From assembly GCA_048938385.1 (NCBI GenBank), contig JBHLMG010000019.1, forward strand, positions 1-45,434: a DNA stretch of 45,434 nt, read 5' to 3'. The notes below the pieces were generated by a model, which had not been told where the DNA came from, did not search any database, and saw only the letters and a program-made list of their open reading frames with translations. Numbering within the stretch: the first letter of the stretch is position 1; each line of letters starts with the position of its first letter. The position numbers and the translations under genes were made by a program. This document shows positions 1 through 24,802 of the stretch, piece by piece. The stretch is from Promethearchaeota archaeon (GTDB lineage Archaea > Asgardarchaeota > Hermodarchaeia > Hermodarchaeales > Hermodarchaeaceae).

Positions 1-1870
1 TCGAGGGTGGAACCGGCGATGCTCGTGACGCCTGTAATCCCTGAGCCGTCAATTGGGCTTTCTATGTCGTTGACCACGTAGTAGAAGGTGATGACCACAT
101 CTTCTCCATAGGGCACCTGGGGAATGGGGTCGAAGGAGATGGAAGTGAGGAGGGTGCGAACCGTGAAACCAATGGTTTGGTCCGCGTCTTCGTGTTGAGC
201 GTCTGGAGAGATGACATGAAGCTGAAGTGTATACGCTTTGATGGAGTTGAGTTTGCCGCTACTATAGAGAATTGTGAGGGTGTATTGACCCCCGCCATTA
301 TCAACGAGGGTGTAGTCGGTGCCGGTGAGGGCGACGGCGTCGAGGGTGGAGCCCGCGATGCTGGTGACGCCTGTAATGCCGGTGCCATCCAAGGAACTTG
401 TAGGATCGTTTACGGTATAGTAGAAGGTGATGACTACATCTTCTGCCCATGGGGTGATAGAGACTGCATCATAAGTAATGAATGTTCGTAATTGCCGCAC
501 ATTAAAGGTAATTGATTGAGTTGCGTCGTTATGTTGAGCATCGGGTGAGCTTACATACAAGGAAAGGGTGTATAATTTGATGCTGTTAATTTTTCCACTG
601 GAGTATAAGATTGTGAGGGTGTATTCGCCACCACCAACTTCCGCGAGGGTGTAATCAGTAAGTAGGAGGGCAATGGCGTCAAGGGTTGACCCTGCAATTG
701 AAGTGACACCAGTAATACCTGTCCCGTCTTGTGAGCTTGCAGGATCATTAACTGTATAGTAAAATGTAATAACTACATTCTCACTCCAGGGTACTGGAAT
801 TACCGGAACATATGTTATTTGAGTAGTCAGCTTTCTTACGGTGAAATTAGTTGATTGACTCGCATCGTCATGCTGGCTATCCGGACTGTTTACATAAAGG
901 TATAAAGTATAGGTTTTTATCGAGCTGAGTTTGCCACTTGAATAGAGGAGGGTGAGGGTGTATTGCCCCCCACTATTATCAACCAGTGTATAATCTCCTC
1001 CGAGTAGCCCCGTACCATCAAGAGTGGAGCCGGCAATACTCGTGACCCCTTCAATTCCAGATCCATGTTGACTGCTGGCTGTATCACTAACTCGATAATA
1101 AAAGACGATGATTATGTCATCGCCCCATGGGGTTGTCGAAATTGGATCAAAGGTTATCTGCATAATAAGTTCTCGAACAGCGAATGTGATTTGGCGGCTG
1201 CTATTTTGGTATGTTGAAGACGGTGAACTGACCACAAGCTGAAGAGTATAGCTCTTTATGCTGTTTATTCGTCCGCTGGAATAGAGAATTGTCAGCGTGT
1301 ATTCTCCGCTGCCAATTTCAACAAATGTGTATTGACCTCCCAGAAGGGCACTCCCATCAAGTGTAGTTCCTGCAATGCTAGTCACACCGGTTATGCCTTC
1401 TCCATCATGAGTACTCTCAGGATCATCTATTAAGTAGGTGAAGTTAATGACGACATCTTCGCCGAATGGAGTAGGTAGGAGTGGGGTGTAGATGATGGCA
1501 GTTTCAAGCGCTCGGACAGTGAAGGTAATGGTTCGGGTAGCATCGCTATATTTTGAATCGGCTGGAGCTAAATTCAAAACAAGTGTATAAGATTTTACAG
1601 TACTAATTTTGCCACTTGTTGATAGAATAATAAAGCGGTATTGTCCACCACCAAGGTCGGTGAAGGTAAAATCGCTTGGTGTACTTAAGGGGGCCCCGTC
1701 GAGTTGAGCTGAAGTGATGCTGGCACTTGTTAAGCCATTTCCATCATATTGACTATCCGGATCGTCAACGACGAAATTAAAGTCAATGACCACATCTTCA
1801 TCCCAAGCGACTGATCCAGGCGGGGTATAATCAATGGTCGTAGAGATTTCTCGTACGACGATAGTGAGCT
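1..1870 (-). repeat. Intragenic tandem repeat, period 339 nt (113 aa), about 5.5 copies visible
   Basis: The anchor motif (+ strand TCRAG.GT.G, encoding (G)STLD-like) starts at 1, 340, 679, 1018, 1357 and 1699, with spacings 339, 339, 339, 339, 342. Unit consensus ~P(Y/W)GEDVVITFYY.V.D..S..DG.GITGVTSIAGSTLD.......Y...D.GGG.YTLTILYSSGKL...K.YTL. Confidence 0.9.
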
Positions 1871-4211
1871 TAAGGGTTCGAGTGGTGTAATAGTTTAGTT
1901 GAGCTTGAATTGTGAGTATGTAAGTGCCGGGTGAAGGCTGATCAGAGGTATCAATAGTGATATCATACCAACCGGGGGTTCCATTACCAGCACCCGTGGG
2001 ACCTGTGGGCCAATCCGTGGTGACAGTAGCTCCAGCAATTCCTGAGCCAAGTTCGTCTTCATAGAAAACTTGGACAGTTGTGGCTTCATCATAGGCTAGG
2101 GTTAATCCGGGCGATTCTGGCGAGGAAAGTGTAGCATCGCTTCGAACCTGCAATGTGATAATGGTTTGGGCCGGTTCATAGAAGTCCGCATCGGCGTCAA
2201 CTGTTAAAGTGTAATCTTGGGGAGTAAGTAAGGCATTTGATACTTTGGCTTCATACCAACTTCCCGCTTGATAGAAATCAATAGTGTGTAGGTCAACTGA
2301 TCCTGTAACAGTCACAGTTCCACTAGTGTTTCCAATGAAAATTGAACGATCCGTGTTATTGTAGAAGACCCGTGGATAAAAGAATCCGGCGCCATATGTT
2401 ACCACTAAAGGTGATTGTTCTGGTGTTAGACTCGTGTCGTGAATGATATCGAATTGGGTTGAGTAAAAGCCAGCAGCAGTCTGGGTTGGAGTGACTCCAT
2501 TATCGTAACTCACGCAGAGGGTGTAGCGACCAGGTGTATAGGTTGTTCCGCTGTTGAAATCAACATTAAAGCCTACAGTGGTTGTTGCTGAGAATGTAGT
2601 ACTTTGTTCATGGGCGATGGAACCATCCGGTCTGTAGAGTGTGATATTCGTTTGTCCGGCATTCTTGAGGTGTGTGACGGTGATGGAAAGCTGGGAGGGC
2701 GTGCGTGGACTGATGTAGTAGGTGTGCTGGATTGGTGTAACGGATGAAATCACATTCAGTGATGAAAAGGTGAAGTTCCACCATCCAAATACCTCGCTTA
2801 TCGCTAAATTGTTGAGTCTAAATTGTGTCGATGTGGTCGTTACAAAACTTGTCCGATCTCTAAAGAGAGCATCCCACGCCTTATGTAGAGTCCACGTTTC
2901 GGTGGTTGGGCGAGTAATGGTAAGATTGTATAATTCAAAGTAAAAGGGCTGATAGGCATACATCCACGTCGTCCAATACACTAAGGAATCATTTTTTGCC
3001 ACAAATCGGGAACCTTCGGCCCCGACTTGCTGTTCGGTCGTTGCGGTTCGCGTTATATACAAGGTTAAATCGTAGGAAAATTGCACCGATCGAGCTTCTG
3101 AATCAAAGCATTGCCATAGTGCTCGCACTCTTTTATGAACCTCGGTTGGATTGGTCCACGTTCCGGTGACCGAGTAGGTACCGTATCCATAGCCATATGT
3201 GCCGGCAACCGGAGTTGTAGAGTTCATGTTTAATTCTAGCCATGATGAATCCGTTGGATCAACTAATCCCCGAACTTCCAAGGCGACATTATCAAAATCA
3301 ATCCCCCAGGCGGTATACTCCCAGGCTTGCTGGTAGCTGGTCCAGGAGAGCCCTAACCGGATAACAATATCTCCAGGAACCAGCCAATTAATTACCTCAT
3401 CATAAGGAATGGAGATGGTCAACGGATACCATACATCATTACTCGGACAATTACTTTCGAGAAGTAATCTGTGTTCATACCCGGCAACTTGGGCATAAAT
3501 CACCATGCGTCCTCGGGAACCAGCACTGGCGCTAAGCTGGGTTACGCGGGCTTGAAAGGTCAAGCGAGCATAGACCGGATCATCCCGTGGAATGTTGATA
3601 GTATTGCGCCAGGCTATGTAGTAATTGTCGTCCCAATACCAGGGATTATTACATTCATACCAGACTCTAACTCCCTTGGTCCCGGAATTCCCATAATTTG
3701 TGCCGTATTTATACCCAAAATAGGGTTCACTTGGGTAGGTGGTATTTGAACCCATGCCACTGGAAATGAAGTTCCATTGGTCTGGCAGGGTTGTTCCGGA
3801 TTCAAAATTGCCATTTTCTCGGCTGCCAGTCATAAAATACGGTTGGTCATACAGATTGTAGACATCAGCATCAAGTTGGTACCCAGTCCATCCCGCAGGA
3901 AGCCGCATTTGGCCATACTGGCTTTCACCCGAATCAAGACCTGTAACTGAAAGCGAATGGTTCGTACCTTGGGCATATTCTTGCGTAGCAAGCGTGGTTC
4001 CTAATCCTTCATATTGGTATTGTCCATCGGAATATATTGGTCCTGCAGGAAGTGGAGGAAGAAATGATGAACTGGCAGGATCTTGGTTATTTTCACTATT
4101 TGGAAGAATTATCTTATTGTTGGTAATGCCTTCATATGGTGTGAGTGCAAGAAAGGGTGTAATTACAAATAAGGCTAACAGAGAGAGGTACAACAGAGTT
4201 TGATGCCTCAT
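1..4211 (-). CDS. Giant secreted/surface protein with 113-aa tandem Ig-like repeats (3'-truncated by the window edge, >=1403 aa)
   Basis: ATG at 4211-4209 gives the signal peptide MRHQTLLYLSLLALFVITPFLALTPYEG. Hand translation at 3781-4020 and 1-360 is open in the same frame (...PIDGSGITGVTSIAGSTLD at the edge). The ORF track lists no ORF in this frame, which fits the absence of a stop inside the window. Thr/Tyr/Val-rich beta-sandwich-like sequence. Confidence 0.92.
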   Translation of the reverse strand, partial: MRHQTLLYLSLLALFVITPFLALTPYEGITNNKIILPNSENNQDPASSSFLPPLPAGPIYSDGQYQYEGLGTTLATQEYAQGTNHSLSVTGLDSGESQYGQMRLPAGWTGYQLDADVYNLYDQPYFMTGSRENGNFESGTTLPDQWNFISSGMGSNTTYPSEPYFGYKYGTNYGNSGTKGVRVWYECNNPWYWDDNYYIAWRNTINIPRDDPVYARLTFQARVTQLSASAGSRGRMVIYAQVAGYEHRLLLESNCPSNDVWYPLTISIPYDEVINWLVPGDIVIRLGLSWTSYQQAWEYTAWGIDFDNVALEVRGLVDPTDSSWLELNMNSTTPVAGTYGYGYGTYSVTGTWTNPTEVHKRVRALWQCFDSEARSVQFSYDLTLYITRTATTEQQVGAEGSRFVAKNDSLVYWTTWMYAYQPFYFELYNLTITRPTTETWTLHKAWDALFRDRTSFVTTTSTQFRLNNLAISEVFGWWNFTFSSLNVISSVTPIQHTYYISPRTPSQLSITVTHLKNAGQTNITLYRPDGSIAHEQSTTFSATTTVGFNVDFNSGTTYTPGRYTLCVSYDNGVTPTQTAAGFYSTQFDIIHDTSLTPEQSPLVVTYGAGFFYPRVFYNNTDRSIFIGNTSGTVTVTGSVDLHTIDFYQAGSWYEAKVSNALLTPQDYTLTVDADADFYEPAQTIITLQVRSDATLSSPESPGLTLAYDEATTVQVFYEDELGSGIAGATVTTDWPTGPTGAGNGTPGWYDITIDTSDQPSPGTYILTIQAQLNYYTTRTLKLTIVVREISTTIDYTPPGSVAWDEDVVIDFNFVVDDPDSQYDGNGLTSASITSAQLDGAPLSTPSDFTFTDLGGGQYRFIILSTSGKISTVKSYTLVLNLAPADSKYSDATRTITFTVRALETAIIYTPLLPTPFGEDVVINFTYLIDDPESTHDGEGITGVTSIAGTTLDGSALLGGQYTFVEIGSGEYTLTILYSSGRINSIKSYTLQLVVSSPSSTYQNSSRQITFAVRELIMQITFDPISTTPWGDDIIIVFYYRVSDTASSQHGSGIEGVTSIAGSTLDGTGLLGGDYTLVDNSGGQYTLTLLYSSGKLSSIKTYTLYLYVNSPDSQHDDASQSTNFTVRKLTTQITYVPVIPVPWSENVVITFYYTVNDPASSQDGTGITGVTSIAGSTLDAIALLLTDYTLAEVGGGEYTLTILYSSGKINSIKLYTLSLYVSSPDAQHNDATQSITFNVRQLRTFITYDAVSITPWAEDVVITFYYTVNDPTSSLDGTGITGVTSIAGSTLDAVALTGTDYTLVDNGGGQYTLTILYSSGKLNSIKAYTLQLHVISPDAQHEDADQTIGFTVRTLLTSISFDPIPQVPYGEDVVITFYYVVNDIESPIDGSGITGVTSIAGSTL

Positions 4212-4712
4212 ATTAGACTGTCCCCAATTGGAAGGCGGCAGAGGAAAGCAAATTAGATACAACCTATCATCATTTCAGGCTCTTGTCCCCTTAATGAGAA
4301 GAAATCTACGAAATGTATTCCAATCTATCGCCATACCTTGTTAAAACGGGCGGGTTGACGATTTAAAAACATTTAGCTGCACGAGTTTTTATACAAATAA
4401 AGAAAAGACCTGAAGGTTCTCCGTGTTTCCAAGTCAGCGAAGAGAACCTTCTTTGGTTACTTCGATTTGTTCCTAAGTATTTATTTTTGAGCGAGCGGAA
4501 CAGTTGAAAGTGGTATCGTGGGTTGAACTCGAAATGTTGTATCGGCTTTTGATATAAGAACTCGGTATCTTCAGAGTGCAGGTGTACGGTGACACCGGTT
4601 TTGATGAACTCAAAGTGGGTGTTAACACCTTGACTTTTTTGTCCATCGTCTGTTCTAAAGCTATCAATATCTATCCATGTCGTGTAGTGTCTCAATTACT
4701 GATCGTTCTAGG

Positions 4713-19372: not shown

Positions 19373-20434
19373 ATGACTCACGAACACGAATCAGACTCAG
19401 CCAATGCAGATGAAGAAGAATCCGTCCAGATGGGGCTCTTCGAAAAGTATCTTACTCTCTGGATTCTCTCCTTCATAGCCCTTGGACTACTATTAGGATG
19501 GCTTTTCCCTGCCTTCGCTTTGACACTTGCAGGACTCCAGTTTGCAGGATTCTCCATCCCTATCGCCGTTTGCCTTTTCTTCATGATGTTTCCCACTCTC
19601 ATCAACATCGAATACGGAGAAATCAAGAACGCCATTCGATACCCTAAACCACTCGTAATCACCCTCATCGCGAATTGGACTATTAACCCCCTCCTCGGTT
19701 TTTTCTTAGCTAGCACCATCCTTGCTGCAAATCCCGGGTATGCCATTGGCGTCATTCTTCTTGCGGTGTCACCCTGCACTGCGATGGTTCTGTTTTGGAA
19801 TAAGTTTGCTAAAGGCAACATAAACCTCGGATTAGTTATCACCTCAATAAACTCCATTTTGATTCTTCTTCTTTATGCCCCACTTGCTTCCTTCTTCATC
19901 GGCTTCTATGTCACCGTCCCTTTCATCACCCTCCTTTTCGGAACCATGTTTTTCCTCGTTCTTCCCCTCGTCACTGGCATCATTGTCAAACGCCATGTGT
20001 ACAACACCAAAGGCCAGAACTGGTACCTCAGTAATTTCAAACCAATCTTAGACAAAATCGCCATCGTCGCGCTGCTCATTACCCTTATAGTCCTCTTCTC
20101 CTTTCAAGGTCAAGTTATACTAACCCAACTTCTCGATGTTCTCTGGATCAGCAGCGTTCTTCTCCTCAATTATGCGATCATGTTTACCTCCATGTTCCTC
20201 ATCTGTTACAAACTCAACTTCACCTACAAACAAACTGTCACGACCACCATTATCGCAAGTAGCTCCCATTTTGAAATCGCTATCGCTACCGCCATTCTCC
20301 TTTTCGGACTTGGATCTGCAGCCGCATTCGCTACCGTGATTGGCGTCTTATGGGAAGTTCCTTTAATGGTCGCCTTCATCAAACTCGCCCTTCGCCTTAA
20401 ACCAAGACTCTGGTCTAACGCTACCACAAAATAA
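19373..20434 (+). CDS. acr3: Acr3 family arsenite efflux transporter
   Basis: FEKYLTLWI, SIPIAVCLFFMMFP, ANW.I.P, SPCTAMV..W, S.HFEIAIA.A, G.L.EVP.M. Confidence 0.93.
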   Translation: MTHEHESDSANADEEESVQMGLFEKYLTLWILSFIALGLLLGWLFPAFALTLAGLQFAGFSIPIAVCLFFMMFPTLINIEYGEIKNAIRYPKPLVITLIANWTINPLLGFFLASTILAANPGYAIGVILLAVSPCTAMVLFWNKFAKGNINLGLVITSINSILILLLYAPLASFFIGFYVTVPFITLLFGTMFFLVLPLVTGIIVKRHVYNTKGQNWYLSNFKPILDKIAIVALLITLIVLFSFQGQVILTQLLDVLWISSVLLLNYAIMFTSMFLICYKLNFTYKQTVTTTIIASSSHFEIAIATAILLFGLGSAAAFATVIGVLWEVPLMVAFIKLALRLKPRLWSNATTK

Positions 20435-20511
20435 TCGACCTAGTAGAACCTGGGTTTTGAATATCCAGAAGTGTTCTAAAAAATCCAGTTTGTGCTGAAC
20501 GATGACAGTTC

Positions 20512-20877
20512 TTAAAACAAGAGTTCTTGAATCTGAGTCACTAATTTCTTGACAATTTCAGGATTTGCTTTATAGTGATTAAACCGCCCTTTTCTTCGTC
20601 GCAGTAATAACCCGGTTCGTGCCAATATATTCAAATGATGTGAAATCGCGGGCTGACTCAACTCACTCACACCTACGAGTTTACAAACACAGACCTCTTC
20701 TGTTCCAATCGCGGCTAGGAGAATCAATCGTTGTGAATGTGCCAACGCTTTGGCCACAGCAACAACCTCGTTAATTTGCTTCTCACCCAGGTCAGACTTC
20801 AAGTCCTTCAACCGCTGAAGAAGCCGTTCTCTATCTTCGCCTGATTCCTCATCACAGTACTCCGACATACTTTTCAC
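20512..20877 (-). CDS. arsR: ArsR/SmtB family transcriptional regulator
   Basis: KALAH..RL.LL, E.CVC.L, SQPAISHHL..L...GL....R.G....Y; convergent with acr3. Confidence 0.88.
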   Translation of the reverse strand: MKSMSEYCDEESGEDRERLLQRLKDLKSDLGEKQINEVVAVAKALAHSQRLILLAAIGTEEVCVCKLVGVSELSQPAISHHLNILARTGLLLRRRKGRFNHYKANPEIVKKLVTQIQELLF

Positions 20878-21217: not shown

Positions 21218-22048
21218 TTGGTGCTTATAATGAATCAACCTAATGATGTTTCTCTACAGAAGGCTGGGGTTGAAGATGTTGAAATCCTTACAGAAACATG
21301 TAGAAGGGCATTTGATTCAGACTTGGAGTTTGGTGCTCCTGGTCCTGGGGGCCCGCCAGGATATGACTCTATTGAATGGAACACCAAGATAATTCAGAAT
21401 CAGTGGCTGCAATATCATAAGATTCTGTTTGGTTCCGAAATCGTTGGAGGATTCATTGTTGGGAATAGATGTCCAGGGTATCAAGTCTGTGAGAGAATCT
21501 GGGTCGACCCTGAGTATATGAGAAAGGGCATTGCAACTAAGGCCTTCGAACTTATCTGGGAAAAATACCCGTCCGCAGATCTTTGGGTTCTAGGAACCCC
21601 TGAGTGGAATGTAAGAACGAATCCCTTCTATAAGAGTCTTGGATTTGTTCAGATTGGTAGAACCTATGACAATCCAACTTGGAACGGCATCTACTATGAA
21701 AAAAGAATTTCAACTAAATTTCCACGATCCATGTCAAAGATTACAGATATTCAGAACGGTCAGCAGAGGGTTCTGGTTGAGGGAAGAGTGGATCATATCT
21801 CAAGTCCACGCACAGTAATTTCTAAGAAGACTGGTGAGGAACTCAAGGTAGCCAATGCAGAACTTTCGGATGACACTGGTTCAATCAAACTTGTACTCTG
21901 GAATGAGCAGATTAGGCAAGTAAAAGAGAACACATCTATTCGAATCGAGGAAGGGTATGTTAAAGAATTCAGAGATGAACTCCAGCTAAGTGTCGGTCAA
22001 TGGGGAATGATAATTACCCTAATACATTCATATTATGAAAGGGATTGA
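21218..22048 (+). CDS. GNAT N-acetyltransferase fused to a C-terminal SSB/RPA-type OB fold
   Basis: N-terminal half has VDPEYMRKGIAT (acetyl-CoA motif A) and N.FYKSLGF. C-terminal half has KITDI.....V.VEGRV......R.V....G....VANAELSDDTGSIKLVLWNEQ......IRIE.GYVKEF....QLSVG..G.I, the archaeal SSB/RPA OB signature. The start may be ATG 21230. Confidence 0.88.
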   Translation: MVLIMNQPNDVSLQKAGVEDVEILTETCRRAFDSDLEFGAPGPGGPPGYDSIEWNTKIIQNQWLQYHKILFGSEIVGGFIVGNRCPGYQVCERIWVDPEYMRKGIATKAFELIWEKYPSADLWVLGTPEWNVRTNPFYKSLGFVQIGRTYDNPTWNGIYYEKRISTKFPRSMSKITDIQNGQQRVLVEGRVDHISSPRTVISKKTGEELKVANAELSDDTGSIKLVLWNEQIRQVKENTSIRIEEGYVKEFRDELQLSVGQWGMIITLIHSYYERD

Positions 22049-23620: not shown

Positions 23621-24163
23621 TTAGGTTACACGTCCGCGCACACGATCGACAGCATATCGTGCGATTCGTTCGAAGATTTGTTCAATGTTAGTTCCGTCTT
23701 TGGCGCTTGTTTCTAAAAATTCTGCACCCAGTTGTCGCCCCATTCCTTGACCTTCGTTCGTATCAACTACGCGTTGGTCCTTCAAATCAATTTTATTTCC
23801 AATAACAATTTTTAGAGCTTGGTCAGCATGTTTGTCGACCTGTCGAGACCAGGTTGGTAGATTTTCAAAACTTTCACGGTTCGTAATATCATACACCATT
23901 AAAGCACCAATGGCACCAATGAAATACCGTTCAACGAGGTTTCGGAACCGTTCTTGACCAGCTGTGTCATATACGAGAAGCGCGATTCGTCTTCCATCAA
24001 TGGTTACAATTTTCCGGAAAATATCAGTACCTATCGTTGCTTTGTAGGATGATTCGAATTTTCCAGTAACATACACTCCAGCAATAGTCGTTTTTCCAAC
24101 AGCAGGGTCACCGATTGCGATGACCTTTAACGCAACATCTGCGTCTTCAGTAGCACTTCTCAT
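23621..24163 (-). CDS. Rab-like small GTPase (intact motifs)
   Basis: GDPAVGKT, YKATIG, DTAGQERF, GNKID, ETSAK; no C-terminal Cys prenylation motif. Confidence 0.93.
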   Translation of the reverse strand: MRSATEDADVALKVIAIGDPAVGKTTIAGVYVTGKFESSYKATIGTDIFRKIVTIDGRRIALLVYDTAGQERFRNLVERYFIGAIGALMVYDITNRESFENLPTWSRQVDKHADQALKIVIGNKIDLKDQRVVDTNEGQGMGRQLGAEFLETSAKDGTNIEQIFERIARYAVDRVRGRVT

Positions 24164-24256: not shown

Positions 24257-24802
24257 TTAGAGGTCAAGGCGATAAAGGTTGACTCCATCTGCCCCATGGA
24301 TGAAGTTGAACCTCAGTCGTTGGACAATTCGCAGCATAGGAGTATTAGAAATATTGACGAGCGCGAATAAGCGGTAAAGCCCTTCTGATTTGGCAATTTT
24401 CACTAACTGTGTCATCATTTGAGTGCCAAGGGTTTTATTTTGAAAATCATCCCGAACTAGTATCGAGACTTCGGCACTTCCCGAATTTTGCTCAAAGAAG
24501 TACCAACAATCGCCAATAACTTCAATATGGTTCTTTGAAGTTTGATGCTCAGCTACCAAGCACAGGTTTCTTGTGTCAATGCAGCCTTTAACAGAACGGA
24601 GCCATTCTCGGGCATCTGTCCATCCGAAGCGTTTCTGCAAAGATTCTTGACTACTCCGCCGGTAAAGGTCTTCGAGTTGGTCGTATTGATCGAAGTTGAG
24701 TGGACGAATTTGAACGAAGCAACCATCGCTGAGCGTTGCACTACATTCGAATTCCGGGGGATAGAGTCCACCCATTATAACATCCTCACGAAAATTTTCC
24801 AA
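24257..24802 (-). CDS. GNAT family N-acetyltransferase
   Basis: L.DG..V.IRP, S.ESL..RF, AEVSILVRDDFQNKTLGT, N.PML; resembles the stand-alone GNAT domain of Pat-type acetyltransferases. Confidence 0.82.
   Translation of the reverse strand: MENFREDVIMGGLYPPEFECSATLSDGCFVQIRPLNFDQYDQLEDLYRRSSQESLQKRFGWTDAREWLRSVKGCIDTRNLCLVAEHQTSKNHIEVIGDCWYFFEQNSGSAEVSILVRDDFQNKTLGTQMMTQLVKIAKSEGLYRLFALVNISNTPMLRIVQRLRFNFIHGADGVNLYRLDL

Follow-up and report, generated by a model that had tools for sequence, protein, structure and literature searches.

Why would an archaeal cell join an acetyltransferase to a domain that resembles binders of single-stranded nucleic acid? The question is raised by an open reading frame (ORF) at 21218-22048 (+) of contig JBHLMG010000019.1 (assembly GCA_048938385.1), the 45,434-nucleotide stretch from a Promethearchaeota archaeon of the family Hermodarchaeaceae that we refer to as the window. 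Its product, here called GNAT-OB, fuses a GNAT N-acetyltransferase domain to an oligonucleotide-binding (OB) fold of the type seen in SSB (single-stranded DNA-binding) proteins and replication protein A (RPA). We consider it likely that the OB fold tethers the GNAT domain to single-stranded nucleic acid or gates it there, an idea common to three of the explanations weighed below. Among these we favor an enzyme that acetylates proteins and that single-stranded nucleic acid holds in place or gates, to which we assign a probability of about 0.4; the other two take a small amine such as a polyamine, or the nucleic acid itself, as the acceptor.

The gene and its parts

The ORF is uninterrupted, stop codon included, and gives 276 aa from a TTG codon at 21218. 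The likely start is ATG 21230, which yields 272 aa and matches protein-database gene call P0001 with 100% identity; homologs are mostly 259-266 aa long. Residues are numbered from this ATG throughout, and conservation was counted over 56 fused family members. An internal start at the in-frame Met168 was considered and rejected: position 168, which is M in 41/56 members and otherwise F, I or L, lies within the predicted interface between the two domains and is better read as a hydrophobic interface residue. The parts of the gene are as follows.

21218..22048 (+): whole ORF, 276 aa from TTG, 272 aa from ATG 21230
21245..21709 (+): GNAT domain, aa 6-160, delimited by Pfam, AlphaFold2 (AF2) secondary structure, VIA-align and Foldseek
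21347..21370 (+): alpha1-alpha2 loop motif GGPPGYDS, aa 40-47, the signature of the GNAT subfamily and presumed wall of the acceptor site
21518..21538 (+): beta4-alpha3 acetyl-CoA pyrophosphate loop [M/H/Q]-R-K-G-I-[G/A]-T, aa 97-103, from conservation in the 56 members
21593..21646 (+): motif B, GTPEWNxRTxxFYxxxGF, aa 122-139, containing Asn127 and also Tyr134, the presumed catalytic residue
21710..21739 (+): short structured linker, aa 161-170, in which P165 is conserved and the hydrophobic M168 belongs to the predicted interface
21740..22024 (+): SsoSSB/RPA-type OB fold, aa 171-265, with R194, V196, W224, Y243 and F247 as equivalents of SsoSSB contacts
22025..22045 (+): lineage-specific seven-residue tail HSYYERD, from the alignment, where the predicted local distance difference test (pLDDT) score falls to ~50

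Both domains are complete

A preliminary description of this locus, drawn from the letters alone, had proposed a complete GNAT domain joined to a complete OB domain, and both halves were borne out. In Pfam searches, aa 73-144 matched Acetyltransf_7 PF13508 (E 3.9e-8, 34 bits vs a cut-off of 27) and Acetyltransf_1 PF00583 (29.3 bits vs 20.7), and aa 185-265 matched Ssb-like_OB PF21473 (E 4e-9, 37 bits vs 24) and PF01336 (35.8 bits vs 27). The AlphaFold model that the same description had called for was computed from an alignment of 56 fused homologs; it had a mean pLDDT of 93.4 and a predicted template modeling (pTM) score of 0.87, and it placed a GNAT topology (beta1-alpha1-alpha2-beta2-beta3-beta4-alpha3-beta5-alpha4-beta6-beta7) ahead of a barrel of five strands that has the usual helix after beta3. 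By Pfam score, acetyl-CoA loop, the Asn and Tyr of motif B, and fold alike, the first domain belongs to the GNAT superfamily.

The OB part resembled small archaeal SSBs. The best NCBIfam matches of the C-terminal third were to short archaeal SSB models (PRK06461, E 7e-20) and then to RPA models. Sequence matches in the PDB were to 2k50, the RPA-related single OB of M. thermautotrophicus (E 6e-9), to SsoSSB (1o7i, 2mna and 7wcg, E 2e-6), and also to M. maripaludis RPA and hSSB1 (SOSS-B1, 5d8f). Like SsoSSB, 2k50 and hSSB1, GNAT-OB has a single PF21473 OB, and 1o7i superposed on it with a root-mean-square deviation (rmsd) of 1.4 A over 99 columns (Foldseek). Unlike SsoSSB-type SSBs, which stand alone and carry a flexible acidic C-terminal tail, the fused OB is joined at its N-terminus to a GNAT enzyme, and no acidic SSB-type tail was seen in the alignment, where the proteins end 0-7 aa past the barrel. 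It also fell far under the cut-offs of all NCBIfam SSB and RPA models (NF005049, SSB: 71.7 bits vs an equivalog cut-off of 188).

Aromatic residues of the kind that stack on bases (in LVLW and GY..EF) had been pointed out in the preliminary description as retained. In a HMMER alignment, R194, V196, W224, Y243 and F247 lay opposite SsoSSB R28, I30, W56, W75 and F79, the last four of which we take to be ssDNA contacts from nuclear magnetic resonance and crystal work on the SsoSSB-ssDNA complex. The Ssb-like barrel thus keeps both the stacking aromatics and the Arg/Ile contacts, and these five positions were retained in 88-100% of the 56 members:

OB position 194: R in 53/56, K in the other 3
OB position 196: V in 55/56
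OB position 224: W in 56/56
OB position 243: Y/F in 49/56
OB position 247: Y/F in 54/56

The GNAT residues were kept to a similar extent, both in the acetyl-CoA loop (G100 53/56, G/A102 55/56) and motif B (N127 53/56, Y134 53/56, G138 56/56) and in the GGPPGYDS loop (P42 55/56, Y45 53/56, D46 51/56). Because the OB contact residues and the GNAT residues are both maintained across the 56 fused proteins, the activities of both domains have probably been retained. As judged from these alignments, binding of single-stranded nucleic acid by the OB fold is well supported. SsoSSB-type OBs work on RNA too, as shown by SisSSB, which can melt dsRNA and complement the cold-shock proteins of E. coli (PMC10684826), and by analogy the ligand of the fused OB may be RNA as well as ssDNA.

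The genome that carries the window has one fused copy, two stand-alone paralogous GNATs, an RPA-like open frame of 581 aa in which OB was matched twice, and a separate SsoSSB-type SSB of 112 aa (contig C29, L082:1444-1782, -). This SSB shares the motifs DDTG..LWN..GYVKSYRGEL with the fused OB and is 47% identical to it over 57 aa.

The two domains are predicted to dock rigidly

As a second look at the arrangement of the domains, GNAT (1-162) and OB (168-272) were folded as separate chains. The interface score (ipSAE) was 0.84, vs 0.23 for the best control; that mark was reached by 58/80 solved complexes and 2/110 mismatched pairs, counts that are rough because a custom alignment was used. Contacts agreed 100% between docking runs, and partner pLDDT was at least 87. 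Searches with Foldseek and VIA-align found no solved chain spanning both domains, the two halves matching separately, so this result does not reflect memory of a known complex. Two predictors therefore support a specific interface, and the pTM of the full-length model points to a fixed arrangement of GNAT and OB.

The predicted interface comprises residues 80-81, 84, 141-147, 149 and 155 on the GNAT side (beta6 and beta7) and 168, 180, 182, 226, 229-230, 238, 240-241 and 260-265 on the OB side. GNAT beta6 (141-147) is predicted to pair with the last OB strand (260-265), while OB 180-182, 226-230 and 238-241 would be touched by the beta3-beta4 turn (80-84) together with residues 149 and 155, and M168 would be buried. 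In this respect too the fused OB differs from SsoSSB-type SSBs, as its helix after beta3 and its last strand would serve as a docking surface. R238 and E240, both conserved in the fusion, fall within the interface; the host SSB has E and N at these positions. None of the five nucleic-acid contact residues counts as buried, although W224 and Y243 flank the interface in the model. The peptide pocket of SsArd1 is bounded by the alpha1-alpha2 and beta6-beta7 loops and by beta4/beta5 (PMC5390088). Since the interface is at beta6/beta7, the OB would, on that layout, adjoin the wall of the acceptor pocket, and we infer that its groove opens beside the pocket.

Such rigid docking by strand pairing also allows for an OB fold that binds no nucleic acid and acts as a structural cap over the beta6 edge, which other GNATs use to dimerize, or as a protein-recruiting module. 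The near-neutral net charge of the domain (family median +1; window copy -2, pI 5.4) would fit such a role, as would the missing acidic tail and the low NCBIfam SSB score. However, the five SsoSSB contact positions are among the most conserved of the domain, with W224 invariant, and they lie outside the predicted interface, a pattern not easily accounted for unless the domain has a nucleic-acid ligand. The host SSB of 112 aa, which has the same motifs, is similar in charge and likewise not basic. We regard a purely structural or protein-recruiting OB as quite unlikely.

Distribution and origin of the fusion

The preliminary description had allowed that the fusion might be an assembly artifact or a singleton. 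It is neither, being conserved in >100 sediment archaeal species. A word-indexed search of the protein database returned 546 homologs; nearly all of the best 120 shared this pair of GNAT and OB domains, and those of the 120 with a source name came from Hermod-, Thor- and Promethearchaeota. In an exhaustive search, the full architecture was present in a dozen clusters at 50% identity. In species-representative genomes we found the fused gene in Hermod-, Thor-, Heimdall- and Hodarchaeota, in one Theionarchaea genome, and in many Bathyarchaeia, including the closed chromosomes CP070761, CP070665, CP070760, CP070640 and CP070784. Matches at E <= 1e-20 occurred in 69/301 sampled Asgard genomes, ~60 of them full length, and matches at E <= 1e-40 in 49/251 sampled Bathyarchaeia. 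Broken down by Asgard family, matches occurred in 10/18 genomes for the family of the window and in 38/76, 14/21, 2/68 and 1/29 for four others. With these frequencies, the gene is widespread but optional.

Consistent with the suggestion that this is not a characterized architecture, none of the papers covered by a literature search described the GNAT-OB fusion. Database annotation is generic, either 'GNAT family N-acetyltransferase' or 'replication factor A1'. The two domain families are each well known.

For the GNAT part we built a maximum-likelihood tree in which 56 sequences came from the fusion, 44 from stand-alone proteins and 5 from other fusions. All fused sequences but one (55/56), the exception being a long-branch row, fell on one side of a branch with SH-aLRT 99; as the fused GNAT parts form one clade, the fusion probably arose once. 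The window's Hermod group was nested inside a Thorarchaeota clade. Sequences from Heimdall, Hod, Hermod, Bathyarchaeia and Theionarchaea were mixed in a second clade, and this mixture implies transfers; inside the Thor and Bathy clades vertical coherence is largely kept. With its Hermod and Thor homologs the window protein shares 64-87% identity, and this, together with the single clade, argues for selection on the whole protein.

Several Thorarchaeota genomes (e.g. G087, G120, G139, G253, G259 and G277) carry two diverged fused paralogs, ~54-69% and ~40-47% identical to the window protein, which suggests an old duplication, or a transfer, with sub-functionalization. We also noted a fused gene on contig DATKWN010000031.1 (L054), labeled Krumholzibacteriaceae. 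This gene is nearly identical to Bathyarchaeia copies, and its neighbors match those at L057 and L058, two Bathyarchaeia loci; the contig is therefore probably mis-binned, and would then represent no bacterial occurrence of the fusion.

The acceptor of the GNAT domain

In the mechanism that we favor, GNAT-OB would be an acetyl-CoA-dependent N-acetyltransferase whose GNAT domain is docked rigidly on an SSB-type OB. The OB would stack ssDNA or RNA on W224, Y243 and F247, with further contacts from R194 and V196, and this binding would keep the enzyme on exposed single strands or switch it on there. The enzyme would then acetylate an amine, either a lysine side chain or an N-terminus, of a protein on or beside the same strand; proteins of the SSB/RPA or chromatin type are the candidate acceptors. 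The steps that we infer are binding to nucleic acid, the acceptor being a protein, and the logic of localization or gating.

A protein acceptor is suggested by RimI- and Ard1-like proteins among the top structural matches, by the long alpha1-alpha2 and beta6-beta7 loops, and by precedent for acetylation of SSBs: SsArd1 acetylates Sulfolobus SSB and Alba (PMC5390088), and p300 acetylates hSSB1 K94 (PMC6451162). In VIA-align searches with the GNAT part, the best matches included the RimI-like 9mto (Z 15.3, rmsd 1.6 A over 138 residues), 8osp (Z 15.1), Ard1 4pv6 (Z 14.9) and RimI 5isv (Z 14.6). GNAT-OB thus shares its fold and its long loops with RimI, Ard1 and Naa10/50/60 (9mto, 5isv, 4pv6, 4r3k). 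It differs from them in sequence (13-19% identity) and in its GGPPGYDS loop, which is specific to its own subfamily. None of them has an OB, and its score of 19.4 bits against TIGR01575 rimI, vs a cut-off of 86.4, does not place it with RimI (bS18 alanine acetyltransferase).

The GNAT half also has relatives that stand alone. These proteins of ~160 aa, 33-45% identical, come from Lachnospiraceae, Clostridium and Treponema and from metagenome-assembled genomes of Acidobacteriota and Gaiellaceae, so that they span Bacillota, Spirochaetota, Acidobacteriota and Actinomycetota; their source names are generic and none is characterized. The GGPPGYDS and TPxWNxRTxxFYxKxGF motifs are common to the fused proteins and to stand-alone bacterial and archaeal homologs. 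When longer proteins were searched with the GNAT part, we found the same fusion with extended starts and a single other case, which had additional GNAT-family matches plus an OB. Elsewhere, in metagenome proteins P0134, P0160 and P0179, the same GGPPGY-type GNAT subfamily is fused to a SWIM zinc finger, pentapeptide repeats and a transglutaminase core, and P0164 and P0230 have C-terminal extensions without a Pfam match. The stand-alone OBs closest to the fused OB (P0207 and P0234) had no GNAT neighbor on contigs of 1.2-1.6 kb, too short to be informative.

Several observations weigh against a protein acceptor on single strands. Sequence comparison did not pinpoint an acceptor, and the acceptor-loop motifs (GGPPGYDS, TPxWNxRT) are those of the stand-alone bacterial homologs, which argues for a substrate that bacteria and archaea share and against an archaeal chromatin protein. 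In profile searches of the PDB, the best match was to a polyamine enzyme, PaiA. In structure searches, RimI/Ard1, PaiA-type and unassigned GNATs lay within ~1 Z unit of one another, too close to discriminate between substrate classes, and an assignment of the class by this route was dropped. To these points must be added the weakly basic OB, the optional nature of the gene and the lack of replication or repair neighbors described below. Of the earlier proposal that the acetyltransferase is targeted to ssDNA or RNA, then, the binding is well supported by the conserved contact residues, while the acceptor was not assignable from sequence.

A substrate shared with bacteria would suit an enzyme that acetylates a small amine, be it a polyamine such as spermidine or another cationic metabolite or xenobiotic. 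The single strand would then be a scaffold, or an allosteric signal transmitted through the OB, and cations bound to nucleic acid would be acetylated and released. The acceptor-loop motifs shared with stand-alone bacterial proteins imply such a universal substrate, and PaiA 1tiq matched the GNAT profile over its full length (E 3e-12). PaiA and SpeG were among the top Foldseek matches, and the polyamine acetyltransferases SSAT2 and DpA were also listed. Conserved acidic residues (D29, D31, D46, E125 and D93) surround the presumed acceptor site, and transporters recur near the gene; the window itself holds ArsR/ACR3, nitroreductase and DUF4386 genes. Against this, identity to PaiA (1tiq, Ta0374), SpeG and SSAT was 22-23%, and the score against the NCBIfam PaiA model (NF053587) was 13.1 bits vs a cut-off of 250, far from membership. 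RimI and Ard1 were structural neighbors at equal or higher Z, no polyamine-metabolism gene was seen beside the archaeal or bacterial loci, and the transporter neighbors were convergent or variable rather than operonic. We know of no nucleic-acid-binding module in PaiA, SpeG or SSAT. On balance, we consider a small-amine acceptor unlikely.

The position of the OB groove raises a further possibility, that the strand itself is fed to the GNAT site and acetylated on a base amine (e.g. cytosine N4), on the amino group of an aminoacyl-tRNA or on an amino-modified end. In the model, residues of the groove border the docking interface, next to the side of the acceptor pocket that beta6-beta7 walls off; the PF01336 family also contains anticodon-binding OB folds, and SsoSSB-type OBs also act on RNA (PMC10684826). 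Opposed to this are the stand-alone homologs, which have the same acceptor loop with no nucleic-acid-binding module, and the acidic surroundings of the acceptor site, which suit a cationic amine better than a polyanion.

Two families of precedent fit poorly as well, and the TmcA-like and aminoacyl-tRNA toxin-like readings of the protein did not hold up. TmcA/NAT10 RNA cytidine acetyltransferases combine a GNAT with nucleic-acid-binding modules. Pfam found GNAT and OB domains only in GNAT-OB, which, unlike TmcA and NAT10, lacks the helicase, DUF1726 and tRNA_bind_2 and belongs to a different GNAT subfamily. Unlike the TacT/AtaT/KacT toxins, it has no conserved small antitoxin-like gene adjacent to it over 60 loci, and the KacT profile matched at only E 4.6e-4. 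A nucleic-acid acceptor therefore seems improbable to us, and we are more doubtful still of the specific version in which the OB threads ssDNA or RNA past the GNAT pocket for acetylation at N4 of (deoxy)cytidine or at an aminoacyl or amino end. If it were true, GNAT-OB would be a minimal, helicase-independent nucleic-acid acetyltransferase found mainly in Asgard archaea and Bathyarchaeia.

Gene neighborhood and searches for a defense role

We clustered the ORFs around the fused gene over 60 archaeal loci and found no partner gene conserved across lineages and no replication, repair or defense neighbors. The neighbors that did appear were lineage-local: a PEMT-like methyltransferase, MFS, EutA, an aldo-keto reductase, a cupin and an ArsR/FilR1-type helix-turn-helix (HTH) protein, and, in Bathyarchaeia, PKD, dehalogenase-like and creatininase proteins. 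The MFS family occurred in 15/60 loci, directly beside the gene in 8 Thor loci, and ArsR/FilR1-type regulators lay within a few genes of the fusion in 8/60, in both Thor and Bathyarchaeia. An ORF of 85-101 aa without a Pfam match, on the same strand and 3' of the fused gene, was seen in only five closely related Bathyarchaeia loci (L041, L042, L054, L057 and L058). Around 18 bacterial stand-alone loci (Lachnospiraceae, Clostridium, Treponema) the neighbors were other GNATs, MatE (4/18), an ABC ATPase, LysR and DUF6075, together with one Ham1-like protein, PNPOx and a kinase-like AAA protein; DNA-damage genes did not turn up beside these 18 loci.

In the window, the GNAT-OB gene is divergent from a gene for an ArsR-family HTH protein (-), with a 340-bp spacer. 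An SBF/ACR3-type transporter (+) and this ArsR-family HTH (-) occupy 19373-20877, and a DUF4386 membrane protein, a zinc-ribbon protein and a nitroreductase are also nearby. Further features of the window were the following.

23621-24163 (-) and 24257-24802 (-): a small GTPase of the Ras family (Pfam Ras, E 1e-53) adjoining a second, unrelated GNAT (Acetyltransf_3/1)
3-4262 (-): an ORF of 1420 aa that runs off the end of the window

The Ras-family GTPase is a eukaryote-like signature typical of Asgard archaea.

The preliminary description had also raised a damage-response or defense enzyme. An antiviral or toxin module triggered by foreign ssDNA would have in its favor only the logic of a sensor domain joined to an effector domain, and the fact that this GNAT subfamily has SWIM, pentapeptide-repeat and transglutaminase modules as fusion partners elsewhere. 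PADLOC matched 0 families, no viral copy of the fusion was present in 2.9 million viral contigs, and the sole PHROG match was to a generic acetyltransferase family and covered the GNAT domain alone. Neither a conserved partner nor a defense-island context was apparent over the 60 loci, and the gene is for the most part vertically coherent within the Thor and Bathy clades. This part of the description was thus not upheld, and we regard a defense function as highly improbable.

Significance

By design logic alone, the nearest parallels to GNAT-OB are the mycobacterial cAMP-binding Pat and the ACT-GNAT enzymes, in which a ligand-binding domain is fused to and packed on a GNAT and its ligand gates acetylation. 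Unlike in those enzymes, the sensor here would be an OB fold that binds ssDNA or RNA. At ~265 aa the protein is small and confidently predicted, and its expression should be easy.

In eukaryotes and in Sulfolobus, one known layer of regulation is the acetylation of SSB, RPA and chromatin proteins, and there the enzyme and the ssDNA binder are separate proteins. Here an acetyltransferase and an SSB-type OB are predicted to form one rigid polypeptide, in the archaea nearest to eukaryotes and in Bathyarchaeia. Should the acceptor be the nucleic acid, or polyamines bound to it, GNAT-OB would represent a new enzyme activity; should it be a protein, as we favor, the family would provide a simple model for ssDNA-directed substrate targeting.

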